Shown one piece after another: positions 4,243 through 62,241 of a DNA stretch of 64,000 nt; the first letter of the stretch is position 1, and each line of letters starts with the position of its first letter. The notes below the pieces were generated by a model. That model worked only from the letters and a program-made list of their open reading frames with translations. It was not told the origin of the DNA and made no database searches. The stretch spans positions 96,001 to 160,000 of the IMG/VR virus record IMGVR_UViG_3300047476_000982. One strand, 5' to 3'. The translations under genes and the position numbers were made by a program. Origin of the DNA: a virus.

Positions 4243-4482
4243 TTAATTCCAATCAATTATCTTATGTAAGGTATTTTTATCTATACCTGCCTTTAAAGCT
4301 TTAACAACAGCTTCTTCAAATTCAACCCTAGGGAAAGAACTTCCTCCTTCATCTGGGCCAATCTTATCTCCTGTAAGACCCGCTGCATCTAATTGATCAT
4401 TATCCATATAATCAAATTCTTCTGCATCAATTTCTTTTAGAAGAGGATTATTTGCTGTAAATTGTTTAAAGTTAAATGCCAT
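4243..4482 (-). CDS. acidic hypothetical protein (possible internal head protein)
   Basis: ORF track; N-terminus MAFNFKQFTANNPLLKE. Confidence 0.6.
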   Translation of the reverse strand: MAFNFKQFTANNPLLKEIDAEEFDYMDNDQLDAAGLTGDKIGPDEGGSSFPRVEFEEAVVKALKAGIDKNTLHKIIDWN

Positions 4483-4502
4483 GTTATGTTTTTTAATTTG
4501 TT

Positions 4503-5894: not shown

Positions 5895-6019
5895 TATAAT
5901 AATTTTACTACTAATAAATATTGAATTACTTATTAAATAAATAAAGCAGTTTCCGTTTCCGCATAGGGGCCCTAAAATATAGTATTTACAAATTTATCAC
6001 TTTGGACATTTCCACTCTA

Positions 6020-6286
6020 TCAGAGTATCCATTTGTCATTAAAGAATTTTCCATTCTCGTAGATCATATCGTTTCCACCACCAGTGAAATAAACACGGGT
6101 GACTTCATTTCCATCCAACAAAGAGTTTGGTATGGTAGTACCCAGGTAATATTTGATACTTTTGACGTTAACACCTCTGGTTACAGTACCATCCTTTTTC
6201 TCTATGGTAATGAAATACCCGCCCTGGATTTTGGTGAGTTCGTTAACCTCGAATTTCCTTACTTCCAAATCTTCTGTCTTTTTCAT
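6020..6286 (-). CDS. hypothetical protein
   Basis: Start trimmed to MKKTEDLEV, which follows an A-rich leader. Confidence 0.6.
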   Translation of the reverse strand: MKKTEDLEVRKFEVNELTKIQGGYFITIEKKDGTVTRGVNVKSIKYYLGTTIPNSLLDGNEVTRVYFTGGGNDMIYENGKFFNDKWIL

Positions 6287-6511
6287 ATTTTTATATTTAT
6301 TCTTTTTTGTAAATTTAAATTTTTCCCGGAGTTTACGATTGATAATCAAATTTTTTGACAACAAAAGATAGGGTCCATTTTAGGAACGACAAATCTATAT
6401 AGAAATAATCAAAACTCCCTTCATATATTTCATAAGAGACCGACAAGGTCGGTAGGATATAAAAGTAGTTATAGTTGGTGACTAGCTTTACTCTTTCTGT
6501 CTTTTTCATAT

Positions 6512-7328
6512 TTACTTATTTTCAAGTTCTTCAATCTTGTTTGTCTTCAACCAACAGGATACAATCCATAGGATAGTAACGATTTGCCAAGCATAGTCTT
6601 CTCCTTCTTTGGAATTATACATTCCTATTGAAGCTGCCACGATTATAGATAAGGCCATACCGACTTTTTCCCATACCTTTAAATGCTGAATTAGTTTATC
6701 CATTTTCTTTTAGCTTTTTTATTTCTTGTTTAAGTAAATCTATTTCTTTCTTTTGTATCTCTACCAAGCTCTTGAGTAGTTCTATGGTTTCATCGGATAG
6801 TTTCTTTCTTTGAACCGACAATTCCAAATACTGGTTGATCTTGTGGCGGAGTTCTATTTCTGTTACCATCTTTAAATTTTGTTTATTTCTAACAATGATT
6901 TAAAAAGTAAAAAGGTTACTGCACCCACGGCTGTAGTTAATGCCAAAATTATTGCTATCCCATCTATTCCGGTTCTTTCATAGATTTTTCTTATAAACCA
7001 ATTATAGAAATGTTGCATAGCTATTATGAATATGCATAACGATACTGTTGCTATTATTTGTGCCATATTAATAGGAATTTTCTGAATAATATTTTTTGAT
7101 CTTGTCATGAAACTCTGGCTTGTAAAGTCCCGTGCCTGGTTGTAATACCATTTCATAGTAAGTATGGTATGTGGCTTGGTACATTGACATTCCTTTTTCT
7201 TCTATTAGGAAATTAAAGTGCTTCCAATATTCTTCTATAATACCTAAGCGTTTCATCAATACTAATTCAAATACGACTTTATCAAACTCTTTATCTGTTA
7301 GATATTCTTTTAATTTAAGTAAGTCCAT
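6512..7328 (-). other. run of four small ORFs (6512-6703, 6696-6869, 6872-~7066, 7068-7328), two of them membrane proteins
   Basis: Abutting minus-strand ORFs; 6696-6869 (MVTEIELRHK..., coiled-coil-like) was read manually. Confidence 0.6.
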
Positions 7329-7516
7329 TTTATTTACGTATTTATATTCTTATAGAATTTCAAAATTTTCCCGGTGTGCACGGTGGGTCAACGCGGGGCC
7401 CCCGGCTAGGGCCCTCCTATCTACCATAATTAGGTCATTGCTGTGGTGCTAGTTGACTGCTAATGGTCAAGAGCAAGCCGCAAGCATGTCGCTCGCGAGC
7501 TCGTCTCTCTAACCAA

Positions 7517-8311
7517 CTAGTTTGAGTATGCGGTAGCCAAAGACCATAGGCCTTGGTTGATATTGAAGTCCTCTATAGGATTCTTGATAGCCCTAGCTTG
7601 ACGGTTGTTCAATTGGAACCCACCCTTAATAAGATTCTCCTGTACGGTATTATATGTATGCCATAGTGTAGGCTGCTCATCAATCTTACGCTTAGCGTTA
7701 AGAATATCTAATACCTCATACTGTTCAGGCTGACGGTCATCACCAAGTCTTAAGGCCAATGCTTCTACAGCAAACTGGTATCTTTGTTTATCAGTCATCT
7801 CTACCATATTCCATTTGCTTATGGTATTAACTACGCCTTGGAGTCCAGATACCTTCTCGTCAATAAGGTTCTTAACCTCTTGGAAGTTCATCTTGGTATG
7901 GCGCTCTCTAAAGGATCCCATGTCCTTGTCTTTAATGACTAGACCGTTCTCACATACAAGACGGAACAAGCCCATCTCGAATTGAATTGGTCTAGTGCCA
8001 TCATGAGAGTTGATAAGCACAACCTCAGGCCTTGCTTCGATGTTACCCTGTGGGTCTTTAATGTAGAGGTCAGGGTGTTGGAAGCGGGTGATGTGTATGC
8101 CCCAATTCTTACGGAGCTCCACGTTAGAACTAGATTGCTTAACTCCTGTCAATGCGTAACCCATATCTTGCATGTGTTCGATAACCTCAAACGTAGGAGT
8201 GAACTGGTACTTCGGACTTTTGATAGTCGGTGCAGGTGAAGTAGCGAAGATAGCTGGAGCGATTTGTCTTGCAGAGTCGAGAGAGATAGATGTAATAGTG
8301 TTCAAATTCAT
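7517..8311 (-). CDS. DUF932-family protein
   Basis: VVLINSHDGTRPIQFEMGLFRLVCENGL signature. Confidence 0.85.
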   Translation of the reverse strand: MNLNTITSISLDSARQIAPAIFATSPAPTIKSPKYQFTPTFEVIEHMQDMGYALTGVKQSSSNVELRKNWGIHITRFQHPDLYIKDPQGNIEARPEVVLINSHDGTRPIQFEMGLFRLVCENGLVIKDKDMGSFRERHTKMNFQEVKNLIDEKVSGLQGVVNTISKWNMVEMTDKQRYQFAVEALALRLGDDRQPEQYEVLDILNAKRKIDEQPTLWHTYNTVQENLIKGGFQLNNRQARAIKNPIEDFNINQGLWSLATAYSN

Positions 8312-49058: not shown

Positions 49059-49135
49059 AACTATTATTTTATTAATACAATAATAAGAAGATATCTTTAA
49101 ATAGATAAATTAAAAATAATAGTGTAAAAGATTTG

Positions 49136-49207
49136 TTGCTGTACCTAGAATCGAACTAGGACTTTTTGGACCGGAACCAAATGTGCTATCCCTTACACTA
49201 TACAACA
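49136..49207 (-). tRNA. tRNA-Arg(CCG)
   Basis: Acceptor TGTTGTA/TACAGCA, anticodon arm TTTGG-TTCCGGT-CCAAA, A after the D-loop GG. Confidence 0.85.
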
Positions 49208-49212
49208 AAGGA

Positions 49213-49247
49213 AAATAAAAAAGGGACTTATTAGGTCCCTTTTTATT
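49213..49247. terminator. terminator-like hairpin with A- and T-runs on both sides
   Basis: AAAAAAGGGACTTATTAGGTCCCTTTTT. Confidence 0.7.
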
Positions 49248-49342
49248 GAGTACACTGCAGTTACCTGCTGTGGTTTGAACAACTCGCAAAGGGTTCTAAT
49301 GTAAGCTCTCAAACCACGGAGTACTTGAGTTTCCGAAGCTAG

Positions 49343-49414
49343 AGCCACCAGTCAGGCTTGATCTGACACCTCTCCCGGTCGGAGTGGGAGGCTTCTACAT
49401 TGAACTATGGCGGC
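49343..49414 (-). pseudogene. degenerate tRNA (possible CCG anticodon)
   Basis: Acceptor GCCGCCA/TGGTGGC and T-stem GTCAG/CTGAC intact; T-loop ATCAAGC; mismatches in the D and anticodon stems. Confidence 0.6.
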
Positions 49415-49551
49415 GAGTATCTTGAAGGATACTCAAACCTGCCTTGCGACAGTTTATTCGAGTTGTCTGCTCTAGATAGTTATAAAAACCGATTTAGTCG
49501 GCAAGGATTAGCCTATCTAGTCCCTTTGTTGTATTTGTATTTATAAATATC

Positions 49552-49890
49552 TTAACTAAATACAGAAACACCTATAACAGTTCCTATAGTTGCTGATATT
49601 AAAAATATAATTTGATCAATTCTAGTACCGTATACCATTCTCTGTACATTTAACATAAATGATAACCAAAAAAAGAATGCTACAAAAGTTAATGTAATAT
49701 CTGCACGCATCGTACCTTCTGCCCATCTAGCACTAATATTACTTCTCATCATAGCATGGAGAAATGCTGATGTAAACGCTAATACAAACGTAATTGGATT
49801 GTAGCTATTTACTTTAAGATACTGTGTAAATAGTGATTTATTTCCTTGAGTTAATACTTTTTTAATTTTCGGTTTTATTTGTTTTTCCAT
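49552..49890 (-). CDS. membrane protein
   Basis: Start trimmed to MEKQIK; three hydrophobic segments. Confidence 0.65.
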   Translation of the reverse strand: MEKQIKPKIKKVLTQGNKSLFTQYLKVNSYNPITFVLAFTSAFLHAMMRSNISARWAEGTMRADITLTFVAFFFWLSFMLNVQRMVYGTRIDQIIFLISATIGTVIGVSVFS

Positions 49891-49904
49891 AACTGTTAAT
49901 TTAG

Positions 49905-49991
49905 TACCTGGAGTGGGACTTGAACCCACACGAGCTTTTTCTGCTCACAAGATTTTAAGTCTTGCGCGTATACCGATTTCGCCACCCAGGT
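49905..49991 (-). tRNA. tRNA-Leu(TAA)
   Basis: Anticodon arm CAAGA-CTTAAAA-TCTTG, long variable arm. Confidence 0.95.
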
Positions 49992-50000
49992 TTATTTAAT

Positions 50001-50158
50001 GCTGTCAGGGGAGGACTCGAACCTCCATGCTGCAATTCAGTATTAGACAAAATAGCCGGCTTTGTGGTCAACCCATATCTAAATACCTATCTTGTTTTTC
50101 AGCGCCCACGAGACGAGTGGGTGTGTATGCCATGTAGCTACTCTTTCACCACCTGACA
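50001..50158 (-). ncRNA. tRNA-like element f (~96-nt insert, enlarged D-loop)
   Basis: TGTCAGGTGGTGAA...GGAGGTTCGAGTCCTCCCCTGACA; compensatory T-A terminal pair. Confidence 0.75.
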
Positions 50159-50162
50159 ATGA

Positions 50163-50381
50163 TTAAAAAATTCTGTCTTGTTTTTCTTGTTTATACTCTT
50201 TGTACTTTCTTACCCAAGTAAAGCTAACATCAACTGCCATCAATACTGGTGCCATTACTAATATGGCTAATGTTTCTAATGCAGGAGATGCATATAGAGG
50301 ATCTTCATTTCTTTTGGCATAACTTGTATACATTTTATATATACAGTAAATTATGCTGATAATGTAAATAGTTAGTATCAT
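50163..50381 (-). CDS. small membrane protein
   Basis: ORF track. Confidence 0.6.
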   Translation of the reverse strand: MILTIYIISIIYCIYKMYTSYAKRNEDPLYASPALETLAILVMAPVLMAVDVSFTWVRKYKEYKQEKQDRIF

Positions 50382-50527
50382 AACGTTTTATTTATTCAAA
50401 AATAAGAAGATATTTTGATATTAACACAATCAATCTTTAGAGTGATTAATTTTATTGGTTTATAAAGATATTTATTCTTGTACCCACAGTATAAGTTGGG
50501 GCATATTTTTAACTTAAATCATTAGAA

Positions 50528-50698
50528 ATGAAAAAAAATGAATTGTTAGGTCTTATCAGACACGCCCTTACTTTTGTCGGCGGTATTATCGTTGCAAAAG
50601 GTTTAATTGATGAGAGCCTATTTCAAGAACTCCTTGGTGGTGTTATGACTTTGTTTGGTGCTGGTTGGTCTCTTTGGGAGAAGAAAAAAGCTGCGTAA
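50528..50698 (+). CDS. putative holin-like small membrane protein (56 aa)
   Basis: Read manually: MKKNELLGLIRHALTFVGGIIVAKGLIDESLFQELLGGVMTLFGAGWSLWEKKKAA; ATATTTATT upstream; terminator downstream. Confidence 0.7.
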   Translation: MKKNELLGLIRHALTFVGGIIVAKGLIDESLFQELLGGVMTLFGAGWSLWEKKKAA

Positions 50699-50720
50699 TT
50701 AACAACACTTTATTTAAAAC

Positions 50721-50753
50721 AAAAGAAAGCCGGTTTATGCCGGCTTTTTTTTA
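50721..50753. terminator. bidirectional rho-independent terminator
   Basis: AAAGCCGG-TTTATG-CCGGCTTTTTTT between convergent genes. Confidence 0.85.
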
Positions 50754-50780
50754 TTAAAAGGCTACTGTTCTTTAACTATT

Positions 50781-51056
50781 TTATTTTTTGTTTGTTAATT
50801 TAGTTTCTAATTTATCTAATCTTGAATCCAATTGTGAATAAATGTCTTTTTCAAAATTATCAATTCTTGAATGACAATGTCTATTCTCTTCAGCTATATT
50901 CTGATAAATTTCACCTACAACTGAATCAAGTTGTCTTTGGGTATTATCTAATTGATTTTTCACTTTTATTACCTTAACGAAAGCATAAGTAGCAACTATA
51001 GCTAAAGCTATAACCACAACGAATGCTATCCCTAAAACGAATGATAGTGTTTCCAT
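50781..51056 (-). CDS. membrane-anchored coiled-coil protein flanked by 16-bp inverted repeats
   Basis: Start METLSF; one N-terminal TM segment. Confidence 0.7.
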   Translation of the reverse strand: METLSFVLGIAFVVVIALAIVATYAFVKVIKVKNQLDNTQRQLDSVVGEIYQNIAEENRHCHSRIDNFEKDIYSQLDSRLDKLETKLTNKK

Positions 51057-51095
51057 AATTTGTTTCTCCTTATATGTCAAAGAACAGTAGCCTTG

Positions 51096-51169
51096 TTGAC
51101 CCTCTCGGGCTTGAACCGAGGACCCACAGATTATGAGTCTGTTGCTCTAACCAACTGAGCTAAGGATCA
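51096..51169 (-). tRNA. tRNA-Ile2/Met(CAT)
   Basis: Anticodon arm ACAGA-CTCATAA-TCTGT; not an initiator type; Ile2 vs Met not resolved. Confidence 0.9.
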
Positions 51170-51181
51170 ATCTTGATTCAG

Positions 51182-51253
51182 AGCCCCCGCCCAGAATCGA
51201 ACTGAGTTATCGTGATTACAAGTCACGCGCATCGCCAGCAATGCTTAAGGGGC
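51182..51253 (-). tRNA. tRNA-Thr(TGT)
   Basis: Anticodon arm CGTGA-CTTGTAA-TCACG. Confidence 0.92.
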
Positions 51254-51254
51254 A

Positions 51255-51283
51255 TAAAAAAAGGAAGCCATTTCTGGCCTCCC
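51255..51283 (-). terminator. rho-independent terminator
   Basis: GGGAGGCCA-GAAA-TGGCTTCCT followed by a U-run. Confidence 0.85.
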
Positions 51284-51625
51284 TCTAAAAACATGATGGG
51301 AGTAACGATTACCCATAATCCCTGGACGGACCCCTTTTCACCCATAGTCCACAAAGATGATCAGTCTAAGTGTTAAGACTAGCTGGATTGACTACCAGCA
51401 ACGCCTGCGGAGATCGTCCGAATTATCTTCAGCGTATCCAGAGCACTTTCAGGTTGCGCATTCTACCCTCAGTGGTGGTGGTTTTAACTCATCCGTCTGT
51501 GATACCCAGCTCAATAGCTTTTCAGCTATCTACCAGTGCCTTAGCAGCTCTCAACCACTTATTCGGCCACAGTTTGATAAATGACTTAGCCTGGGACAGT
51601 GAACCAGGAGAACTGTGCTAAGTAC
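51284..51625 (-). ncRNA. candidate large structured ncRNA of unknown family
   Basis: GC-enriched, no credible ORF, many hairpins, lies between the tmRNA and a terminator. Confidence 0.6.
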
Positions 51626-51630
51626 TTTAG

Positions 51631-52019
51631 TGGAGATAGTGGGATTCGAACCCACGTCTCCGAAAGAGACAATAATACTAACGTCTCACATGCTTAGTAC
51701 TGCTTGCGCTGCACCGTAAGGGCTGACTTGTTATGGTCGGATCCACCACTTGATTTATTATATCGACATCAAGAAACTAACTCACAGTCCTTATTTAACG
51801 AGTCGATCGTGAATACTCGGAGTAGTTCTGTTCCTAGGTTACTCACCCGTAGTTGACTAGGCAGCTACTGCGTAGTCAGCACCAACGAATGCCATAGCAT
51901 CTTCGAAGGTGAATGAAGATAATTCTTCAGCGTTTATTGTTTAGTATCTTCTAAGGCAGTATACTCAAATGCCTGCATGTAGTATTACCTCTACATCCGG
52001 ATCGATACCGGTTATCCCC
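51631..52019 (-). ncRNA. ssrA: tmRNA
   Basis: 5' GGGGATA / 3' TATCTCC-A with a G3-U pair, T-arm GTGGGTTCGAATCCCAC, and tag ORF 51857-51931 (AEELSSFTFEDAMAFVGADYAVAA*) after ATAAAC. Confidence 0.95.
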
Positions 52020-52326: not shown

Positions 52327-52572
52327 TTAAGGAAGCTTAACTTCTTCTAAAGACTCATTGTCTTTATTATCTGTTGAAATTTTACTTGCTGATTCTGAAC
52401 CACTGATTGCATCGTTTAATTGAGCAGAATCAGTTACTACATTTGCAGAATCAACTGGAGCTACTACTGAATCTACAGGAGCTACAAGTGAATCAGTGGC
52501 AGGAGTTTCACCAGAACCACCACAAGAGGCAAGCATAACAAGCATTGCCATAGCGATAACCATCTTTTTCAT
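52327..52572 (-). CDS. small low-complexity lipoprotein
   Basis: MKKMVIAMAMLVMLASC lipobox; DSxxA repeats; TATATTTG at 52598-52605. Confidence 0.8.
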   Translation of the reverse strand: MKKMVIAMAMLVMLASCGGSGETPATDSLVAPVDSVVAPVDSANVVTDSAQLNDAISGSESASKISTDNKDNESLEEVKLP

Positions 52573-52656
52573 TTTTCTATTTTGATTTGTTTCAATACAA
52601 ATATAAGATAGATTTGTTTATTGGATATAATTAATCTTTATAGTGAGATACTTTTT

Positions 52657-53847
52657 TTATTGTCCCTTACTAGGGAATTTAGTCCAACCATTAATCCAAG
52701 TAGGCATAGCTAATTCAGGAATAATAACGTCAATCTCTTTATTACCTTTTCCTAAAGCTAGTGTTTTAAGTTGATCATTAGTTAGAATTGTAGTTGCTTT
52801 ACTAATAAAATTTAAAGTTGGATTAAATGCACCTACTGAATTGTTTTCGAATATAGATACACCGTCTTTTACTGCTTGAGCTGTTTCATTACTTTCTAAA
52901 CTAAGTCCACCTTTCATCCAACCGTAGATTGCACTATTCTTTACTGTGAATTGAGTAGCTCTTCTAAATCTTAAACCTAGATTGTGGTTCGCTAATGCGG
53001 TTTGATTATTAGGTCCAACTAATACCATTCCAATTAATTTAGGATGCGTAAATGGTTGTGCCAGTGAGCCCACACCATCATTATCACATTCTACACCATT
53101 ACCAGCATCACCGTTATCTACAAATAAAGGATCGCGTTTTGCAATACCATTTGTTACAGTTCCAGTATACCCAAAATCAAAGTCAAAATCATCATCTGCT
53201 GTAGCATAAGCATAAAGATTTTTTGGAGATACAGTACCACCAAAAAATTCAAATGCATCGTCATTAGCGTAAATAGTTTGTACATTTTCAATTACTGTAC
53301 CAGAACCTACACCACCTAAAGTAAGTGCATTAATTTCTGAGTTAGGTAGTGCAGCAATACCGGCATACTCAATACGAACATACTTTAGTATACCACTATT
53401 ATCTCCATCATCATTACCACCAAATGGACGGCCAATACCGCCTTCAATAGTTGGTTCAGATGAACGATTAGTTTTTGCTTTACCTAATATTACAATTCCA
53501 CCCCAGTCACCAGGAGACCTCTCGCCGGCGATTTTTCCTGAGGTAAAAATGATTGGTTTTGTTGCCGTACCTTCTGCAATAATCTTTGCACCTCTCTCAA
53601 TGCACAAAGCACCTTTTTCTGCAATGTCACTTTTGATTACAGTTCCAGGTTGAATAATTAACGTAGCGCCATCTTTAACATAAACGTATCCTTTTAAAGT
53701 CCATTCTTTATCAGAAGTAAGAGTTGTAGTTATTGTGATATTACCTGTAATTGTTTTGTCAGTAGGTACATTAATAGGCGCATCTATTTGTTCTTTTTTA
53801 CAAGCGAATAAACCGATAATTACTAAAAATAAAGTTAGCTTTTTCAT
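52657..53847 (-). CDS. beta-helix-like surface lipoprotein of the type paired with TonB receptors
   Basis: Lipobox LFAC; TLIIQPGTVIK, GDWGGIVILG, NSGILKYVRIEYAG, DDAFEFFGG. Confidence 0.8.
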   Translation of the reverse strand: MKKLTLFLVIIGLFACKKEQIDAPINVPTDKTITGNITITTTLTSDKEWTLKGYVYVKDGATLIIQPGTVIKSDIAEKGALCIERGAKIIAEGTATKPIIFTSGKIAGERSPGDWGGIVILGKAKTNRSSEPTIEGGIGRPFGGNDDGDNSGILKYVRIEYAGIAALPNSEINALTLGGVGSGTVIENVQTIYANDDAFEFFGGTVSPKNLYAYATADDDFDFDFGYTGTVTNGIAKRDPLFVDNGDAGNGVECDNDGVGSLAQPFTHPKLIGMVLVGPNNQTALANHNLGLRFRRATQFTVKNSAIYGWMKGGLSLESNETAQAVKDGVSIFENNSVGAFNPTLNFISKATTILTNDQLKTLALGKGNKEIDVIIPELAMPTWINGWTKFPSKGQ

Positions 53848-56093
53848 AAATTCAAATTAAATGTTAATGAAATTGATTGTTCGTTATTTGTTTTAATTAA
53901 ATTGCCCCTTGATTTTTGATAATAAACAGAAGGTTGGGCAAGTATATCACCTACTGCTAATTTTATTTCTCCTTTACCTACCTTACGTAAGAATACTAAA
54001 TCTATAACATCTCTAGAGTTTTCAAATATGTCATCGTATCCTTGAAAACCTACTGCTGATATTCTATCTCCAACTCTATTATAAGAAAGGTTGATTGTGT
54101 TTTTTCCTTTATGTAAATTCAATCCACCATTTACAACATAATTAGATTGCCCTTGTAATTGTCTTTTTCTACCGTTAACAACTACTTCAGATTTAACTAT
54201 AGAAGTATTAGTATAAGCATCTAACCAATTAGTTATTTTTTTACGAAACTCTATTTCAAATCCAGCAACTAATGCTTGATCTGGATTCAAGTATGTTAGT
54301 AATAGATTTGATGGTACTGATCCATCTGCTACTATTTGTTCAATTGGCTTTTTAAAGTCTTTAATAAAGAAAGCTCCTGATATGTTTTCACTTTGTTTAG
54401 GATAGTATTCTAACTTAATATCAACGTTATAAACATCTGTCTTTTGTAGATTGGGATTACCTAATAGTTGGGCATTACGTACAAAATCATAGTATGCAAA
54501 GTTAGCAACTTCTCTAAACTCAGGTCTTGCTAATGTTTTACTAGCAGATATTCTATACTTAAATCTATCCCATTCATAAGAAAAGTTTACTGAAGGTAAA
54601 AGGTCTAGATACTTTCTATTTACATTAACTCTCGTACCACTAAAGTCTGCGGTTTGTACATTAAACAAATTGTATTCTGTTCTTAAACCTGCATTTACTT
54701 TCCAACCATTTAATTCGCCTTCATATAAAGCATATGCACTTGCTAAATCAAAATCTGCAGAATACTTGTCAGTATTATTAGTAATTTCGTCTAACATATC
54801 TTCAGAAGTATATCTAAAGATTCTAGCTTTAAAAGTTCTGTATTTTTTAATATAGCTTGAACCTATTTTAAAACCACCTAATTGTTTATTCACGCCGGCA
54901 TTTAAACCATTTTCATCCATGTCACTCCAAAAACGATAAGTATCTCTCCATGCAATTGCATAAGGTTCATTAACTCCTAATGACTTAGTTATTGGATTAA
55001 TTCTATAGTCTGGTTGTTTTCTAATCATTAAATTATATCCTACATTAAAATCAAAAGTTTTAATCTTGCCATCAAATTGAGAATTGATTAATGTTTTAAC
55101 TATATTATTAGACGCATTACTTCTTACATCTTGAACATTATCGTAATTCTCGCCTATACGAGTTAAATAAGATTGTTCTACTTGATGATTAAATAAAGTT
55201 TTTAAACTATATCTATTTTTTCCTGTATAAGTTACATTAAAAAGCCCATTTAACAATTGAACTCTACTAAATGAAGTATCTCTGTATTTGTATGCTAATT
55301 CTGTTGATGATTGATAATCTTGTCTATCAATATAATTTAGTGCGTAAGTATTTCTTGCAGTTGAACTAAATAATACGTTCCACTTATTTCTTTTTAATCC
55401 AAAAGAAAGCGATCCATTTAAGTTAGGAATAGATTTAAATTCTTGAACAATTGGAGACTTTATGAGACTTGTGTAATTCTTTTTCTCTGTGTTTGTGCTT
55501 ACGCGATAAATGTAAGTGGATGGAAATTGAGTGGGGAAGGTCGTATAATCCACCAATTTGAAATTTTGGGAAGTTGAAACGGCCCCGTAATTCACTCCGA
55601 GGCCTAATGAGAAAAAATCATTAGATACATCTTTTGTAGTTACTTGAACAATTCCTCCTGCAAAATCACCAGGCAAATTTGCTGTAGCTGACTTTGCTAC
55701 TATGATATTATCTATGAGTCCTGATGGAATAATATCAAATGAAAATGCTCTACGATCAGGTTCTGTTGATGGTAAAATAGTTTTATTCAGCATAGCAGAA
55801 TTATATCTATCTGCTAAACCTCTAACTAATACAAACTTATCGTTCTGTATAGTAACACCATTAACTCTTTTAAGTGCATCACCTACACTACGATCAGGAG
55901 TTTTCTTTATAAACTCAACAGAAAGCCCATCAGATATAACAGAACTATTTCTGATGCTATTAATCACTGCAATGTTAGATTCTTTCTTTTGAACAGAACG
56001 AATCGTAATATTATCTAGTTTTTGATTGAATAAAGTGTCTTGGGAAAAGGATAAAACTGGAAATAGTAAAAATAGTAACGCTTTTAATTTCAT
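53844..56093 (-). CDS. TonB-dependent receptor
   Basis: Plug motifs (DALKRVNGVT, VRGLADRYN, GDFAGG), GNPNL, C-terminal barrel strand ISLTFNLNL; start trimmed to MKLKALLF. Confidence 0.93.
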   Translation of the reverse strand: MKLKALLFLLFPVLSFSQDTLFNQKLDNITIRSVQKKESNIAVINSIRNSSVISDGLSVEFIKKTPDRSVGDALKRVNGVTIQNDKFVLVRGLADRYNSAMLNKTILPSTEPDRRAFSFDIIPSGLIDNIIVAKSATANLPGDFAGGIVQVTTKDVSNDFFSLGLGVNYGAVSTSQNFKLVDYTTFPTQFPSTYIYRVSTNTEKKNYTSLIKSPIVQEFKSIPNLNGSLSFGLKRNKWNVLFSSTARNTYALNYIDRQDYQSSTELAYKYRDTSFSRVQLLNGLFNVTYTGKNRYSLKTLFNHQVEQSYLTRIGENYDNVQDVRSNASNNIVKTLINSQFDGKIKTFDFNVGYNLMIRKQPDYRINPITKSLGVNEPYAIAWRDTYRFWSDMDENGLNAGVNKQLGGFKIGSSYIKKYRTFKARIFRYTSEDMLDEITNNTDKYSADFDLASAYALYEGELNGWKVNAGLRTEYNLFNVQTADFSGTRVNVNRKYLDLLPSVNFSYEWDRFKYRISASKTLARPEFREVANFAYYDFVRNAQLLGNPNLQKTDVYNVDIKLEYYPKQSENISGAFFIKDFKKPIEQIVADGSVPSNLLLTYLNPDQALVAGFEIEFRKKITNWLDAYTNTSIVKSEVVVNGRKRQLQGQSNYVVNGGLNLHKGKNTINLSYNRVGDRISAVGFQGYDDIFENSRDVIDLVFLRKVGKGEIKLAVGDILAQPSVYYQKSRGNLIKTNNEQSISLTFNLNL

Positions 56094-56167
56094 ATTGTGT
56101 GTTGTCTTTAAATAGATATTTTGAGCTAGTTGCCCAGGCAATATCTTTGTATTATCAAATTATTAAA

Positions 56168-57295
56168 TTAATTAGAAGAATGAGATAGATTTATGTCTCC
56201 TAAAATACAGTACTTAATGTTTTGAGTAACATTAGAAGTCACAACATTAATTGTAAATGAGGCTACTGGGTTAATTGTAGAATAATTGGATCTGTTTATT
56301 AAATCATAATTAGCTGAAGTAAACCATAATACTTGATTTATAGGTCTTAATCCACTAAGGTGGGCTGCTACTAGGTAAGCATCACCTAAATCTAATATAC
56401 CATTTCTATTCACATCAGCTGCTTTCCACTGTTTAGTTCCAGTCATTACTAGACCTTGAGCCGTATTAGATGGTATGTTTATATTTTTAACTTCACCCCA
56501 AATTAAATCAAAGTCAGTTGATGTTATACCTTGAATTGTTAATGAAGGATATATTTTGTAAGTAGTATTATTAGCTGGTACTGTAAATGAGTATGTTCCA
56601 TTTGTAGCTACAGTTTTAGTTTCAACTAAATTTTCACTCGTTCCAACTATTCTATATAAACTAAGTGTAGGATATGAAATTAAAGTTGGTACTGACACTA
56701 TTCCACTTATTGTAGCTAAAGGTACTACTATACCTAATTCAGTAGGTTGTAATGAATAAGCTGATTGTGAAGGTCTTTTCCATACAACTGCCATACCATC
56801 ACCCCCACCATACTCTTGCATTCGGGCGATGAATGTATATGATGTTCCTGCAACTAAACTAACAGAACCATATTGATAGCCACTCATACCGTGACCTCCA
56901 TAAAATGAAGTTACCAAAGCACCATTTATAAGCAAATCAGAACCGTCATCAGAATTTATTCCAAATGTATAGATTCCTGTTTCTGTAGGAGTAAATACTC
57001 CACTCACTTCAACAGCATAAAAATCACCATTATTGGGAATACTAGCACCTGCATTTGATAGTGTTGTCCACGTAGTAAAATTTAAACACGTAGTTGCATT
57101 CATAGTACCACTCCACCATAATGTAGTGTTTGAGTATGATGTATTAGTTAAAATATCCATCTGAGCTTTATTATTGGCAAAATTGGGATATTGTGAAGTA
57201 TTACCATTACCAGCATGTGTACGAAACACTTTTACATTTAGTGTTTGTCCAAATGTTAAAATAGGAAATAATAATATAACTAAGACTCTGATCAT
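56168..57295 (-). CDS. secreted PA14-domain protein with a dockerin-like Ca-binding module
   Basis: Signal peptide; FGINSDDGSDL and EYGGGD (PA14); ADVNRNGILDLGDAY and GDIN. Confidence 0.8.
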   Translation of the reverse strand: MIRVLVILLFPILTFGQTLNVKVFRTHAGNGNTSQYPNFANNKAQMDILTNTSYSNTTLWWSGTMNATTCLNFTTWTTLSNAGASIPNNGDFYAVEVSGVFTPTETGIYTFGINSDDGSDLLINGALVTSFYGGHGMSGYQYGSVSLVAGTSYTFIARMQEYGGGDGMAVVWKRPSQSAYSLQPTELGIVVPLATISGIVSVPTLISYPTLSLYRIVGTSENLVETKTVATNGTYSFTVPANNTTYKIYPSLTIQGITSTDFDLIWGEVKNINIPSNTAQGLVMTGTKQWKAADVNRNGILDLGDAYLVAAHLSGLRPINQVLWFTSANYDLINRSNYSTINPVASFTINVVTSNVTQNIKYCILGDINLSHSSN

Positions 57296-58551
57296 AAATT
57301 AACTTTACTACCAATTAAGAAAAATGATAGCATTGGTATTTCAGTATTAGTACTTACATTTAGTTTATAGTTAAAGTTAAATTTAAAACGTTTAGTTATT
57401 TTATAGTCAAATCCAGATCCTATAAAAGCTGCAAACGTTCTATCCGTTGATGTTACTCTATCTTTTGCAGAATATATTAACGGAGTTGACATAATATACA
57501 ATTCCGGTGATATGGTTAATTTTTTCCCTGTAGTGAATGGTTTTGTATAGAAAGCAGTTACTGTTGGACTAAAGAAAGAACTCTTGTCTTCAGATATAAG
57601 TGCACCAGACGCGCTCACATTGAATCCTGTAACACCATATTTGTTTAAATTGATAATACCACTGTAACCTGCAAAACCTATCAGATTGCCATAAGAATAA
57701 ACACCGGTTATACTGAAGTTATGAATGTATCTTAAAGATCCTGATTTGCTAAATTGCATTTTAGTGTATCTTCCTGAAAGTGCAAATTGTTTAAAATTCA
57801 TCCATATCATTCCTGTTAGTCCCCAACTAGAAGCTCCAGTCATTGAAGATTGCGAAAGTCCTAAATTAAGTATTGGAGTGAAAGAACCATTTAAATTCTG
57901 GGCAGTTGTTAGATCTGATTGTACTAACATAGGATTAGAGTTAGAAGCCTTTGCTTTAGAGCCGCCACCTTTTCCTCCACCTGATTTGCCTCCTCCACTA
58001 TTTGAACTAGTTTCTGTTTTTTGATCATTACTAGCATCTTGACTTGATGTTGTACTAGAAGCAACTTCTTGACTTCCTTGTTCAGATCCGCCACTAGAAG
58101 ACGCGCTAGATGATACGCTACTAGTAGCACTAGAAGAAACACTAGACGTTGCACTAGATGACACGCTACTAACCGCACTAGAAGTAACTGATGACACAGC
58201 AGACGTAGATGCTGATCCTATTACATTACTTACTACACTTTGAACTGCGTTACCTACTACTTGAGATGTAATTTGATTTTGTGTTACTTGACCAGATTGA
58301 ATTGAACAAGGTGATACTTTTCTATAGTCAGAATAAACTTGATTAATCCAACTAGCTAAATTACCATTGGCTACATCACCAGCAATAAATGCTTTTGATT
58401 TATTTAGGAAAAAAATTACGGTGCCATTTGCAGGCACCATAAAAGTACTAACTTGTTTTGTACAAGGATCAATAAATGTATAGACAAGAGATTGGCTCTT
58501 AGTATAGAGTCCAATAAATAGGAACAATATTATGTATAATATCCTTTTCAA
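57292..58551 (-). CDS. secreted protein with a Ser/Gly-rich linker and a probable C-terminal beta-barrel
   Basis: Signal peptide; SSVSSSAT repeats; alternating amphipathic strands in the C-terminal half. Confidence 0.65.
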   Translation of the reverse strand: MKRILYIILFLFIGLYTKSQSLVYTFIDPCTKQVSTFMVPANGTVIFFLNKSKAFIAGDVANGNLASWINQVYSDYRKVSPCSIQSGQVTQNQITSQVVGNAVQSVVSNVIGSASTSAVSSVTSSAVSSVSSSATSSVSSSATSSVSSSASSSGGSEQGSQEVASSTTSSQDASNDQKTETSSNSGGGKSGGGKGGGSKAKASNSNPMLVQSDLTTAQNLNGSFTPILNLGLSQSSMTGASSWGLTGMIWMNFKQFALSGRYTKMQFSKSGSLRYIHNFSITGVYSYGNLIGFAGYSGIINLNKYGVTGFNVSASGALISEDKSSFFSPTVTAFYTKPFTTGKKLTISPELYIMSTPLIYSAKDRVTSTDRTFAAFIGSGFDYKITKRFKFNFNYKLNVSTNTEIPMLSFFLIGSKVNL

Positions 58552-58557
58552 TCATCA

Positions 58558-59280
58558 CTAAGATTTGAATACACCTTTCTTGATCATGCGAGTAAGTATT
58601 CTACCGCATGCAATATCAAGAGCTTTTTTAGTTGCGATTGAAACTGTTGATTGATTAAATTTAACTGGATCTAGAGTAGCATCATTTAATATAGTAAGCT
58701 CTCTTATTGTCTTTGCTTCACCTAAACCTGATGCTGCAATGATTTCTCCTGTCTCTGCATCAGTAAAACGAACTTGAAGACCTAAACGAGTTACCATCAT
58801 ATTCTTTACTCCGTCTTTCATATTAATCTCTTCATCATCACTTACACTCCAATCATACACTTCTATTTCAACAAAGTAATGAGCTAAACGAATTTTACCT
58901 CTACCATCTAACTTGTCTTGGCTTATTCCTGCTTGAGAGGCTTGAAACTGTTTAACCATCCTATTCTTAATCTCTGTTTTATCTTCTGTAAAGCTAAATC
59001 TATTAAGATTCTCCAAATATTCAAGCGTGATGTTAGCCACACCCAAACCCACTTTCTTTTCTTTGAGTTCAGGATATTGCTCATAAAGCTCATCACCAAT
59101 ACCACATTTGAGGATCTGAATTGGTATAGTAGGTCCATCATAATCTAATAATGAATCAATATTAATTTTTGTCTCAAATGAAGCTTTGTATTGCTCTGTA
59201 GTTGTTTTACCTACTACTTGAGCACTACTGCTTAAACCAATAAAAATTGGTATCACTAAAAATAATAATTTATTTACCAT
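58558..59280 (-). CDS. CsgG/HfaB-like outer-membrane protein
   Basis: LENLNRFSFTED...RLGLQVRFTDAETGEIIAASGLGEA. Confidence 0.7.
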   Translation of the reverse strand: MVNKLLFLVIPIFIGLSSSAQVVGKTTTEQYKASFETKINIDSLLDYDGPTIPIQILKCGIGDELYEQYPELKEKKVGLGVANITLEYLENLNRFSFTEDKTEIKNRMVKQFQASQAGISQDKLDGRGKIRLAHYFVEIEVYDWSVSDDEEINMKDGVKNMMVTRLGLQVRFTDAETGEIIAASGLGEAKTIRELTILNDATLDPVKFNQSTVSIATKKALDIACGRILTRMIKKGVFKS

Positions 59281-59594
59281 TGTGCAGGTTGTTCTTTAAA
59301 TTCGTCGCCTTCTTTTTTCTTTTTAGGAGCTTCTTTCTTTTCAACTGGTTTTTCAACCACTCTCTCTTTAATGATAGTTGTACCACCTGAAGCAGCTTGT
59401 TGTTGCTGTTGAGTATTGTTGATAATAATAGAAGGTTGAGCAGCAGGAGTTGCTACTGTTTCTTCTTTATCTCCGCCAAATAGTAGAGTACTAAGCCATA
59501 CGCCACCGCCGGCTACTACGGTTCCTAATGTACCTACTATAGTTTTTTTAAGTCCTGACCATGTACCATCTTGTTGTTCTAATTCTTCTGACAT
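59274..59594 (-). CDS. single-TM protein with a Gln-rich, charged tail
   Basis: ORF track. Confidence 0.65.
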   Translation of the reverse strand: MSEELEQQDGTWSGLKKTIVGTLGTVVAGGGVWLSTLLFGGDKEETVATPAAQPSIIINNTQQQQQAASGGTTIIKERVVEKPVEKKEAPKKKKEGDEFKEQPAQW

Positions 59595-59596
59595 AA

Positions 59597-61492
59597 TTAA
59601 AGTATTAAAAAGGGTTTAGTAATAATTTTCTTTTGATCCGTCATTGATAAATAGTAGTTACCTTGTCTTAAGTTAGTAGCATCTATTTTATAATTTGCTG
59701 TTAATGCATATTCATTGCTTGATAGTTTACCTAGATCTTTAACTGGGCGTCCAGTTACATCAAATATCATAGCATTCATATTCATGTTATTTCTAGGGAA
59801 AGTAACTACTAATTCAAACATACCGTTATTTGGATTAGGACGAATTGATGTAACTACCTCTTCATCGCTACCATTATAATATCCAGGTATTCTTCTACTT
59901 GATAATGCTACTATATCAGACTGAAGCACGATATTAAATCTATCTCCATTTTGATCACCTGCATCCATTAATTTACGTACTTTAATATAGCTAGTAATAT
60001 CATTGTTACCTATAGGAGAAAATTTAAGTTTAAACGGCATATAATTGCCAGTTATATATCCTACGTTTTGATTATTCATTCCACCAAAACGAATAGTTCC
60101 AGTTTGTGCATCATGGTTTACATATTGTAACCACGGACCTTGAATATTAGATACAATCTCTTCAAATTTTACTTTAGTTCTATCATAAGTCATTTCAAAT
60201 TGAAGTGATGCATTTTGAAGTCCATTCGTACTAACATTCATTGGAACATATAGTGGTTCTCCTACATTAGCAAATGTGTTAGGTATGTTAACATTTAAGT
60301 TGCCTATAGTATTATAAGCCACTATTTCTTGGTTGTTAGCATCAAATACAGGTGATGAGTGGCTTCTATTTACGTCACCTACAATTGCATATTTAAGATT
60401 AACTACAAGATTAGCTGTACCTATACTGTCATAAACAAAGTCCATTCTATCTAAGAATGCAGGCCAAGATGTCCATTGATTTTCACCTAATACTAAATTA
60501 TCATATTCAGTAGCAGTAAATACTTTAATTAATCCTGCCGTATCGATTTGTTTTAAACCAGCTACAGAAGCATAAATACCATAAGCGTCTCCACCATCTA
60601 ATCCAGCACTCTTATTAATATCAGCTTGTAAGTAACTCAATCCTGATTTTAAGTATTGTCTTGTGTATACTTGATTTACATCTGTATTAACAAATTCATC
60701 ATACACTTTAGCACCATCAGTTATTGTTACAGCGTTATCTCTAATTGTAGTTAATTCAGCTTTAGGGAATAATAATTGTATTTTATATTTTGTATTTTGT
60801 TCAATATTATCTAATGTGTAAGTACCATCAGTAGCAATAGCAACACTTGAAGCAACGGTACCATCAACTGCATCTATTGCTAATACTGTAGGTTTAGAAG
60901 TCATATTAGCAGCCAACCATACTTTACCTGAAATGGTTAAGTTACCTTTTAAGAATACGGACATGCTCTTATTAGTAAGATTAGCTACATTATCTCCTAT
61001 TGTATTACCATCTTGAGTGAATAATCTAGCCCAGTTAATTGTAATAGAATCAGATACGAAGTTTGCTTCTACTGAGTTAATTTTATACTTGTTGTGTATA
61101 ATATAAGCTTGAGATCCAATTTGATTACCACTAGCTAAGATTAAATAGTTACGAGCTACAGTCCAAGCAGTGTCAGATACATAAGTATAATTACCTGCGG
61201 TATAGCCTGAGTATTTAGAATTATCAAATTGCTTATAGTCAATATAAGGAGTTTGAGTTGCAAATGCTACATCAACAGTAGTTGCAATGTGAGTTAAAAG
61301 TCTTTTCTTATATTGAAAGTCAACTTGAAATGTACGAACATCTTTACTAGCAATAGGTTGATAATACCAGGCAACATCTAAAGTGTCACCTCTTTTAACA
61401 GTTGCGAGCTGTTGAAAGTGTCCGATTGAAGGTTGTTGGGCAAAGGAAGCATAACTAATTAATACTGCAAGCAGCGTTAATAGTTTTTTCAT
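59597..61492 (-). CDS. cohesin + dockerin-like protein with a T9SS type-A C-terminal sorting domain
   Basis: Two cohesin-like segments (FQVDFQY; LQFEMTYD); ADINKSAGLDGGDAY and GDVN; IRPNP...IFDVTGR...LRQGNYYL...KPFLIL. Confidence 0.8.
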   Translation of the reverse strand: MKKLLTLLAVLISYASFAQQPSIGHFQQLATVKRGDTLDVAWYYQPIASKDVRTFQVDFQYKKRLLTHIATTVDVAFATQTPYIDYKQFDNSKYSGYTAGNYTYVSDTAWTVARNYLILASGNQIGSQAYIIHNKYKINSVEANFVSDSITINWARLFTQDGNTIGDNVANLTNKSMSVFLKGNLTISGKVWLAANMTSKPTVLAIDAVDGTVASSVAIATDGTYTLDNIEQNTKYKIQLLFPKAELTTIRDNAVTITDGAKVYDEFVNTDVNQVYTRQYLKSGLSYLQADINKSAGLDGGDAYGIYASVAGLKQIDTAGLIKVFTATEYDNLVLGENQWTSWPAFLDRMDFVYDSIGTANLVVNLKYAIVGDVNRSHSSPVFDANNQEIVAYNTIGNLNVNIPNTFANVGEPLYVPMNVSTNGLQNASLQFEMTYDRTKVKFEEIVSNIQGPWLQYVNHDAQTGTIRFGGMNNQNVGYITGNYMPFKLKFSPIGNNDITSYIKVRKLMDAGDQNGDRFNIVLQSDIVALSSRRIPGYYNGSDEEVVTSIRPNPNNGMFELVVTFPRNNMNMNAMIFDVTGRPVKDLGKLSSNEYALTANYKIDATNLRQGNYYLSMTDQKKIITKPFLIL

Positions 61493-61968
61493 AGTACGGT
61501 TTCAATTACGTTTATAATAGTTTTCTTGAGGGCAGAACGAGCTGATGCTTGGTTAAAACCACCTCCTTCATCTATTATCATCGTAGAAGTAGAGATTTCA
61601 GAAGATTTACCTGTTCCTAAGTATTCCTTAATTTTCTTTCCACCTTTGGTTAAAACTCCCTTAATCCTAATAATGGTCTCGTTGTCATTTTTATGAAACA
61701 CACTAACACCAGCACTAGTTTGCAAAACATCAAAATAAACAACTTCAAAACTAATTTTATAAGTAGAATCATTTTTTCCTACTATAGAATAACCTTTATC
61801 CATTATAGCTTCTTCCGCTATATTTTTTACACCTAAAACTAAATTTTTATTTCCTGCTAAAGGACCTATCTTAATATTATTAGATACGTCTCCAACATAA
61901 ATCTTAACATCTTGAGAAAAAGAGACTGCGCTCAAAAGTAAGCACAGTCCCAATAAAAAGTTCTTCAA
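61489..61968 (-). CDS. secreted protein, possibly CsgG/LptE-like alpha/beta fold
   Basis: Signal peptide; short similarity to the 58558 protein around LG.GKS.E. Confidence 0.5.
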   Translation of the reverse strand: MKNFLLGLCLLLSAVSFSQDVKIYVGDVSNNIKIGPLAGNKNLVLGVKNIAEEAIMDKGYSIVGKNDSTYKISFEVVYFDVLQTSAGVSVFHKNDNETIIRIKGVLTKGGKKIKEYLGTGKSSEISTSTMIIDEGGGFNQASARSALKKTIINVIETVL

Positions 61969-61980
61969 TCGTCAAATGGT

Positions 61981-62241
61981 TTAGTGAGCTAAACTATCAA
62001 CAACAATTACTGTGGTGTCTATTTGATTAACAACTGTGTCAACTACTTCTGTGCTATCAGGAAATGCTGCAGATATTTGATCAATAATAAGATCGAACTT
62101 TACTGCATCTTCACTAATATAGCCTTTCTGAACTGCAAATATTACAGCAGCAATAGCTACTACAGACAAAATAATAACTTGCTTCTTTTTACCTTTTAAC
62201 TTAGCTACTAAAGGAATGAGTTTTGATACTACGTTTTTCAT
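61981..62241 (-). CDS. single-TM hypothetical protein
   Basis: ORF track. Confidence 0.6.
   Translation of the reverse strand: MKNVVSKLIPLVAKLKGKKKQVIILSVVAIAAVIFAVQKGYISEDAVKFDLIIDQISAAFPDSTEVVDTVVNQIDTTVIVVDSLAH

Follow-up and report, generated by a model that had tools for sequence, protein, structure and literature searches.

A phage-borne TonB-dependent transporter and beta-helix lipoprotein pair as a putative Pho-type uptake cassette

Among described outer-membrane systems, those closest to the gene pair reported here are the FII-type cassettes of Bacteroidota. In Flavobacterium johnsoniae, phoR and phoB are accompanied by genes for the transporter Fjoh_0545, with Plug, CarbopepD_reg_2, and OMP_b-brl_3 domains, and for the pectin-lyase-fold lipoprotein Fjoh_0546, designated FII; Fjoh_0545 and Fjoh_0546 were strongly induced on phosphate depletion and were repressed under nitrogen or iron limitation (Lidbury et al. 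2020, PMC8115612). The paralogous lipoproteins FI and FIII are encoded elsewhere in the F. johnsoniae genome, and plant-associated Bacteroidetes often lack a classical high-affinity phosphate transporter (PMC8115612). BT4055 and BT4056 of Bacteroides thetaiotaomicron were described as a non-SusC transporter and its putative lid; BT4056, which shows 40% identity with Fjoh_0546, is predicted to bind BT4055 on its outer face (Price et al. 2023, bioRxiv 10.1101/2023.03.17.533168). Here we describe a phage-borne pair of genes, encoding a predicted TonB-dependent transporter of 749 amino acids (aa) and a beta-helix lipoprotein of 396 aa, found in a stretch of 64,000 nucleotides (nt) that is called the window in this report (positions 96,001 to 160,000 of the IMG/VR record IMGVR_UViG_3300047476_000982).

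The window pair resembled the FII-type cassettes Fjoh_0545/0546 and BT4055/4056 in three respects: a transporter that has Plug and OMP_b-brl_3 domains and is not of the SusC family; directly downstream on the same strand, a gene for a pectin-lyase-fold lipoprotein, a pairing that is conserved across Bacteroidota; and, in the cellular relatives of the phage pair, a Pho-type neighbourhood. It differed from them in being carried by a phage, in a transporter that lacked the CarboxypepD_reg domain and had trimmed loops, and in a lipoprotein that lacked a segment of approximately 50 residues ahead of its C-terminal W-x3-W motif. We favour, with moderate confidence, the reading that the cassette is a host-derived, Pho-type auxiliary unit of two genes for uptake across the outer membrane.

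The two genes and their products

In the open reading frame (ORF) listing of the window, all three ORFs of the cassette region were on the minus strand. The transporter gene (53844..56093) lay within an ORF spanning 53844–56141, in which the ATG at 56093 gave a protein of 749 aa opening with the signal peptide MKLKALLFLLFPVLSFSQ; the alignment showed that homologues of the transporter begin at this same position. The gene for the lipoprotein (52657..53847, 396 aa) overlapped the transporter gene by 4 nt, the start of the former and the stop of the latter sharing ATGA at 53844–53847, and the two genes are translationally coupled. Both large genes are real, with conservation across more than 100 loci and purifying selection on each of them.

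In Pfam, the transporter matched Plug (E = 3.3e-7) and OMP_b-brl_3 (E = 7.3e-25). Its NCBIfam match to TIGR01782, with 180 bits, was below the cut-off, and the NCBIfam scan gave no match of the transporter to the SusC/RagA models, TIGR04056 included. A plug and a barrel were visible in its AlphaFold model (predicted local distance difference test score, pLDDT, 86), and Foldseek aligned this model over its full length with solved TonB-dependent transporters at E values of approximately 1e-25, among them PhuR, FepA, FecA, and BtuB at 1.9e-25 and below. By its domains and predicted fold, the 749-aa protein is a member of the TonB-dependent transporter superfamily. From these data and the alignment to cellular homologues, we assigned the signal peptide to residues 1–18, a TonB-box-like strand, LDNITIRS, to residues 26–33, the plug to about residues 54–147, and the beta-barrel to the region from about residue 160 to the C-terminus. 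The strand LDNITIRS aligned with L-x-EVVV(T/R)A of the cellular copies and the long-form phage copies, and kept the alternating hydrophobic pattern in a degenerate motif. There was no TonB_C domain in four complete related phage genomes, and any energising of the transporter would therefore need the TonB-ExbBD of the host.

The cellular transporters were approximately 935 aa long and had an N-terminal CarboxypepD_reg domain. In the phage clade, there were two forms, one of approximately 825 aa with this domain (34 loci) and one of approximately 750 aa without it (32 loci, including the window), the domain being present in 34 of the 66 phage-clade copies. When compared with the cellular copies, all phage transporters showed a deletion of approximately 75 residues at eight inter-strand positions, with no insertions. 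Among the positions conserved in at least 90% of the cellular copies, the phage clade retained 83 of 99 in the transporter and 82 of 88 in the lipoprotein; the conserved transporter positions that were lost were mostly in the N-terminal domain or in the deleted loops.

The lipoprotein had a signal peptide with the lipobox L13-F-A-C16 and was classified by a precomputed assignment into the recent Pfam family PF28492 (Beta_helix_4), for which a literature search came back empty. Its AlphaFold model (pLDDT 85) was a right-handed parallel beta-helix, and VIA-align gave Z scores of approximately 23 to AlgG, tailspikes, NosD, and pectate lyases. These structural matches are generic for a beta-helix and no family was prominent among them, so that the function is not readable from the fold. 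A Foldseek search of the model against the PDB gave only matches with E values of 1e-3 or higher, and a sequence search against solved structures gave none. The alignment showed an invariant acidic cluster, composed of Asp196, Asp197, Glu200, Asp218, Asp219, Asp222, Asp224, Asn250, Glu253, and Asp255, and the conserved C-terminal W-x3-W motif formed by Trp384 and Trp388. The phage lipoproteins retained every invariant acidic residue, whereas approximately 50 residues present ahead of W-x3-W in the cellular lipoproteins were missing.

Many of the best structural neighbours (Z 19–23) were phage tailspikes and depolymerases, as would be seen if the lipoprotein were a depolymerase, a tailspike-like enzyme, or a part of the virion, with the adjacent barrel incidental. 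This explanation is very improbable, since the protein has a signal peptide and a lipobox and no N-terminal virion-attachment domain, and since neither it nor the transporter matched any PHROGs family. In addition, its nearest sequence relatives were cellular lipoproteins or surface proteins sorted by the type IX secretion system (T9SS), always paired with a transporter, and the fold matches were of the generic kind described above.

In a search of protein representatives, Beta_helix_4 was also found in giant proteins of 1,000–4,900 aa with two to five (once 14) matched stretches, and in variants with a T9SS sorting tail in place of the lipobox, suggesting that the family is a general surface module of Bacteroidota.

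Downstream of the pair, a gene on the minus strand at 52327..52572 encoded a low-complexity lipoprotein of 81 aa with the lipobox LAS-C, as judged from its translation and upstream sequence; it gave a weak, sub-threshold NCBIfam match to the PG1828 lipoprotein family. The 84-nt spacer ahead of this gene (52573–52656) contained TATATTTG, which agrees exactly with the TAnnTTTG promoter box of Bacteroidota and is approximately 35 nt before the ATG; this suggests that the gene is transcribed separately. We considered the 81-aa protein as a third component of the cassette and rejected it, because its homologues were found only in the four closest relatives (L086–L089); it is therefore a neighbour gene outside the conserved unit. 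The earlier note on this DNA, made by a model from the sequence alone, had described an intact 749-aa transporter overlapping a 396-aa lipoprotein and followed by a small lipoprotein. This arrangement was found at the coordinates given above, with the small lipoprotein outside the unit.

Cellular counterparts, origin, and phage carriage

A scan of one genome per prokaryote species yielded 80 cellular loci, nearly all from Bacteroidota, with some from Ignavibacteriota and Kapaibacteria. A transporter homologue was encoded directly upstream and on the same strand in 70 of them, indicating a conserved cellular cassette of the receptor and surface lipoprotein type that the earlier note had recognised. 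The neighbours of the 80 loci were clustered and then assigned with Pfam. Those that recurred were an OmpR-type response regulator (20 loci), a histidine kinase (18), PhoU_div (9), a calcineurin-like phosphoesterase (Metallophos; 8), and a PHO4 phosphate transporter (6). For the divergent regulator pair of Chryseobacterium, the best models were PhoB and PhoR/PnpS. A profile of the lipoprotein family matched 46 of 81 Flavobacteriales genomes, with three or four copies in the large ones; in three large genomes, exactly one family copy stood in the layout kinase <- regulator / transporter -> lipoprotein, which is the same kinase-regulator-transporter-lipoprotein layout as that of the Fjoh_0545/0546 locus. 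The cellular counterparts of the phage pair are FII-type cassettes in phosphate-starvation neighbourhoods, as matched by domains and layout.

The cassette might instead import a nutrient other than a phosphorus compound, such as a glycan, a peptide, a metal chelate, or a cofactor. The pectate-lyase-like fold of the lipoprotein is common to many glycan-active enzymes, many cellular loci had no obvious Pho neighbour, and a report on the megaphage LR745206 labels its homologue SusC and proposes carbohydrate uptake (Michniewski et al., PMC9723777). However, the transporter did not match SusC (TIGR04056), its partner was not SusD-like, there was no carbohydrate-active enzyme among the conserved neighbour clusters, and the neighbours that did recur were PhoBR-like regulators, PhoU_div, PHO4, and phosphoesterases. 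The published induction was also specific to phosphate depletion and was not seen under nitrogen or iron limitation (PMC8115612). We thus regard a non-phosphorus substrate as quite unlikely. The earlier note had associated this type of lipoprotein with phosphate limitation and had named phosphorus, a nucleotide, or B12 as the nutrient to be scavenged. The recurrence of Pho-type neighbours in the cellular homologues, the published low-phosphate induction, and a Pho-box-like repeat upstream of the transporter, described below, substantiate the association with phosphate limitation; among the substrates, phosphorus is favoured, whereas B12 found no support.

Maximum-likelihood trees of both proteins were obtained by a quick search, without a mixture model for the transporter, and were left unrooted. 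Each contained a single phage clade with a value of 100 in the Shimodaira–Hasegawa-like approximate likelihood ratio test, nested within Chitinophagales/Sphingobacteriales sequences. The sister of the phage clade was formed in both trees by two loci from Chitinophagales metagenome-assembled genomes (MAGs; L011 and L025), a grouping supported at 99 for the transporter and at 90 for the lipoprotein. The agreement between the two trees indicates that both genes were captured together in one event, and on this phylogeny their donor was a Chitinophagales-like bacterium. The stem branch of the phage clade was long in both trees, measuring 0.44 in that of the lipoprotein and 0.65 in that of the transporter, and the phage copies showed approximately 40–65% identity with cellular copies for the lipoprotein and approximately 30–38% for the transporter, 65 and 38% being the maxima for clearly cellular ones. 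Between phages, the transporter had a median ratio of nonsynonymous to synonymous substitution rates (dN/dS) of 0.15 and the lipoprotein one of 0.14, and the values against the nearest relative were 0.08 and 0.04, respectively. These ratios indicate that the pair is under purifying selection across a wide clade of phages of 170–330 kb. Placements within the clade were partly discordant between the two gene trees (for example, that of L097), which hints at recombination between phages.

The record containing the lipoprotein is a contig of 184,728 bp, and the window had traits of a phage: six tRNAs, a transfer-messenger RNA (tmRNA), an endolysin, a PD-(D/E)XK exonuclease, an HNH endonuclease, and several PHROG families. 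At least 130 viral contigs of IMG/VR encoded relatives of the lipoprotein; they came from numerous samples, a large share of them from the Lake Mendota series, and we retained 80 loci, with 71–97% identity of the lipoprotein and contigs of up to 326 kb; the transporter was directly upstream of the lipoprotein in all 65 viral loci that had enough flank. Four related records of 171–326 kb, one of them with direct terminal repeats, were rated 100% complete by CheckV, and each contained, besides the pair, genes for Terminase_6N and phoH. The pair is phage-borne, as the earlier note had proposed. Its carrier is a large, lytic-type phage of freshwater Bacteroidota, with a host probably in Chitinophagales or Sphingobacteriales. 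When the window region was compared with 50,697 phage records, there were no blastn matches and only five distant tblastn hits.

The earlier note had seen contamination by host DNA or a misassembly as the finding that would overturn phage carriage, and the bacterial type of the two genes could be explained by such a misjoin, as could the occurrence of a close relative, L006 (JBILRJ010000032.1, 27–8598), on a contig binned in a 'Spirosomataceae' MAG. We consider this scarcely credible, since the pair stood beside a terminase gene in complete phage genomes and on numerous viral contigs, and since it formed a clade of its own that showed at most 65% (lipoprotein) and 38% (transporter) identity with clearly cellular copies. 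L006 itself was nested deep in the phage clade, and is most simply explained as a misbinned phage contig. In L006, a gene for a T9SS-sorted metallophosphoesterase with thrombospondin repeats was upstream of the pair and a phosphodiesterase-like gene was downstream; the locus belongs to a phage contig that was misbinned and has a larger phosphorus module, or else it results from a back-transfer to a cell. A 5.7-kb gut scaffold deposited as 'UNVERIFIED Bacteriophage sp.' (MT838075, L186) was rejected as evidence of phage carriage, because its best matches were to Bacteroidales and it is probably host DNA. The megaphage LR745206.1 (L185, 635 kb) encoded a 431-aa beta-helix lipoprotein and then an 882-aa transporter at 4296–8136, in the reverse of the order in the window. 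This cassette matched cellular ones best, which indicates an independent capture.

The genes flanking the pair varied among the relatives, and the pair was the most constant element of a variable region. The endolysin gene was approximately 2.9 kb upstream of the transporter in three of the closest relatives (L086–L088) and 6.5 kb upstream in the window, and in other relatives a primase gene and a PD-(D/E)XK gene preceded the pair. In the window, the upstream block on the minus strand (56168–62241) encoded a PA14-domain protein, proteins of 419 and 240 aa, and one of 631 aa that has a T9SS sorting domain; most of these genes recurred in only 1–25 of 85 related loci, and the block varied among the relatives. 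Directly downstream of the cassette region, at 49135–52019, were a tmRNA gene with a tag of 24 residues and four tRNA genes.

The upstream repeat and the proposed role of the pair

On the minus strand of the window at 56150..56165, 72 nt upstream of the transporter ATG, there was a direct repeat, TAATAATTTGATAATA, in which two TAATA units are separated by ATTTGA with a period of 11 bp. The regions upstream of the phage transporters were otherwise unalignable, and most of them contained two hexamers, TTAAYA-N5-NTAAYA, with an 11-bp period at positions −55 to −90. In this interval, exact TAAYA-N6-TAAYA occurred in 20 of 47 distinct phage upstream regions, against a background of approximately 0.008 per 261 nt, and 38 of the 47 had this motif when up to one mismatch was allowed. 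It was likewise exact in 35 of 60 distinct cellular upstream regions (background approximately 0.01 per 261 nt), and most phage and cellular copies had the repeat at a corresponding upstream position. In Sediminibacterium sp. C3 (L027; G006:C4:1224961-1225021), six tandem GTAACA units with an exact 11-bp period preceded the transporter gene. A genome-wide search of this strain for KTAACA-N5-KTAACA gave two further sites in all, a total that was not above that of a reversed-pattern control; one, the sole other intergenic site, was approximately 125 nt upstream of phoH, and the other was intragenic and likely due to chance.

Bacillus subtilis PhoP binds direct repeats of TT(A/T/C)ACA with such spacing, and the 11-bp periodicity is typical of the PhoB family. 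We propose the shared upstream repeat as a candidate Pho box of Bacteroidota, and the repeat in the window as a putative binding site for a PhoB/PhoP-type regulator of the host; we infer that the regulator acting there is PhoB. In the region upstream of the transporter, the Bacteroidota TAnnTTTG box was represented only by a near-match, TAATTTG, and a scan for sigma-70 promoters and terminators gave counts at or below chance. A second conserved element, ATAGTTATTGGGGAACTAAC, was observed approximately 10–35 nt upstream of the transporter start in many relatives (for example, L108, L110, L119, L132, and L163). Neither the window nor its closest relatives had this possible leader or promoter element.

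Several observations weigh against a Pho-type uptake unit. Exact TAAYA-N6-TAAYA occurred three times in the 64-kb window, where 4.1 matches were expected by chance, so that the weight of the repeat comes from its conserved position and not from its occurrence. The repeat in the window was also the AT-rich variant, with TAATA and not TAACA, which is unremarkable in DNA of 30% GC. Approximately one-fifth of the phage relatives had no repeat and were apparently co-transcribed with upstream phage genes, the transporter starting in some of them approximately 37 nt after such a gene; control is thus not uniform across the phage clade. No experimentally defined Pho box of Bacteroidota was found in the literature searched, and the regulators encoded beside the cellular copies scored below the NCBIfam cut-offs for PhoB and PhoR. 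The match to the FII type by domains and layout, noted above, belongs here as well. Finally, the window transporter was without the N-terminal domain and approximately 75 residues of inter-strand loops, and these losses, together with the long stem of 0.65 substitutions per site, mean that the function may have shifted.

In another explanation, the pair remodels the envelope: the loop-trimmed transporter and its cap would flood it and displace or mask the host transporter that this phage or its competitors use as a receptor, resulting in superinfection exclusion or receptor replacement, with transport secondary or lost. The deletions shared by all phage transporters, the loss of the N-terminal domain in half of the clade, the window included, and the long stem branches after the capture agree with this explanation. 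So does the position of the pair within a variable island of surface proteins, among them PA14 and T9SS-sorted ones, and receptor masking is proposed for outer-membrane proteins of huge phages in a 2026 preprint (10.64898/2026.10.24.761521). A mask, however, would need no family-invariant acidic residues, such as those retained among the conserved positions of the lipoprotein, and neither a plug nor a TonB-box-like strand; moreover, the conserved Pho-box-like site suits nutrient-dependent expression better than constitutive exclusion. Envelope remodelling is therefore unlikely in our view, and receptor replacement, which the earlier note had offered beside nutrient scavenging, stays the weaker rival to phosphorus uptake.

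If the pair is a phosphorus uptake unit, as we favour, the phage operon would be switched on in a phosphorus-starved infected cell by the binding of a PhoB-like host regulator to the repeat. Through the Sec, Lol, and beta-barrel assembly (BAM) machineries of the host, the barrel would then reach the outer membrane and the lipoprotein the cell surface. The acidic face of the lipoprotein would capture a phosphorus-containing ligand and pass it to the barrel, import would be powered by the host TonB-ExbBD, and the extra phosphorus would feed the replication of the large phage genome. In this way, infected cells would probably gather additional phosphorus for the benefit of the phage.

The trimmed barrel and the acidic lipoprotein may also have been repurposed, either for the import of polymeric phosphorus from lysed neighbours, such as extracellular DNA or nucleotides, polyphosphate, or teichoic-acid-like polymers, or for a nutrient capture that doubles as a receptor shield. 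We put this forward as a speculative variant with a low probability; in the case of polymeric phosphorus, the lipoprotein might be a surface enzyme that cleaves the polymer. If it were true, lake phages of a widespread clade would remodel the outer membrane of their host as no cell does.

Comparison with other systems

SusCD-like systems and PusCD complexes share with the window pair the logic of a TonB-dependent barrel and a ligand-binding surface lipoprotein. PusCD complexes can import organophosphorus compounds, and the preprint that describes them characterises complexes other than those of the FII type (bioRxiv 10.64898/2026.09.03.749221). The window transporter differs from these systems in being outside the SusC family, and its partner is a beta-helix protein and not a SusD of the tetratricopeptide-repeat type. 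ElpS of Caulobacter crescentus, which is not known to be paired with a TonB-dependent transporter, resembles the window lipoprotein as a surface or secreted lipoprotein linked to phosphate starvation. It is a secreted lipoprotein induced by low phosphate, and the cited papers report a sequence similarity to the FII family, as a distant relative of FI–FIII and BT4056 (PMC8115612; bioRxiv 10.1101/2023.03.17.533168).

Outer-membrane barrels have been reported from huge phages. One preprint lists 1,603 beta-barrel proteins, including 22-stranded ones in Lak phages, and describes transcribed 22-strand receptors as well as phosphate-acquisition neighbours in aquatic phages (bioRxiv 10.64898/2026.10.24.761521); the receptors of Mar_Mega_1 and LR745206 appear as 'SusC' in another report (PMC9723777). 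These receptors are similar to the window transporter in being phage-encoded, of a predicted 22-strand type, and associated with predicted Bacteroidota hosts, and LR745206 carries the same type of cassette as the window. In the portions of the two reports available (PMC9723777 and 10.64898/2026.10.24.761521), a beta-helix partner, an FII/Pho identity, and an upstream repeat are not described. The present clade is a separate lineage of freshwater phages of 170–330 kb with a single capture of its own. The independent capture in LR745206 argues that a cassette of this type pays off for phages. Auxiliary genes that phages took from the Pho regulon of a host are a known kind, as are outer-membrane barrels encoded by phages; a complete transporter with its beta-helix partner, placed behind a host-type repeat and fixed in a freshwater phage clade, appears to be undescribed in the literature searched.

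The phosphate-acquisition genes known in phages are mainly those of cyanophages (pstS and phoA), whose products act in the periplasm. Zeng and Chisholm reportedly showed in 2012 that the cyanophage pstS and phoA are under the control of the host PhoBR. The window pair is similar to these genes in that a host phosphate-acquisition gene is carried by a lytic phage, is apparently controlled by host starvation, and is presumed to feed phage DNA synthesis. It differs from them in the phylum of the host and in forming a two-protein complex for active import across the outer membrane, whereas pstS and phoA encode a periplasmic binding protein and a phosphatase; the regulation of the window pair is, furthermore, deduced from the motif alone. 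As judged from sequence, the pair is a host-derived, presumed phosphorus-acquisition system of the pstS/phoA kind that is fixed in a phage lineage and functional, its phosphorus role being assigned by gene context. On this comparison, a whole predicted energy-dependent import complex of the outer membrane is a fixed part of large freshwater phages that form an abundant clade, seemingly under host starvation control, and the viral reprogramming of phosphorus capture would extend to another major phylum and to lakes. The phage version would also represent a natural minimal form of the FII-type system, in which the residues common to phages and cells mark the essentials.

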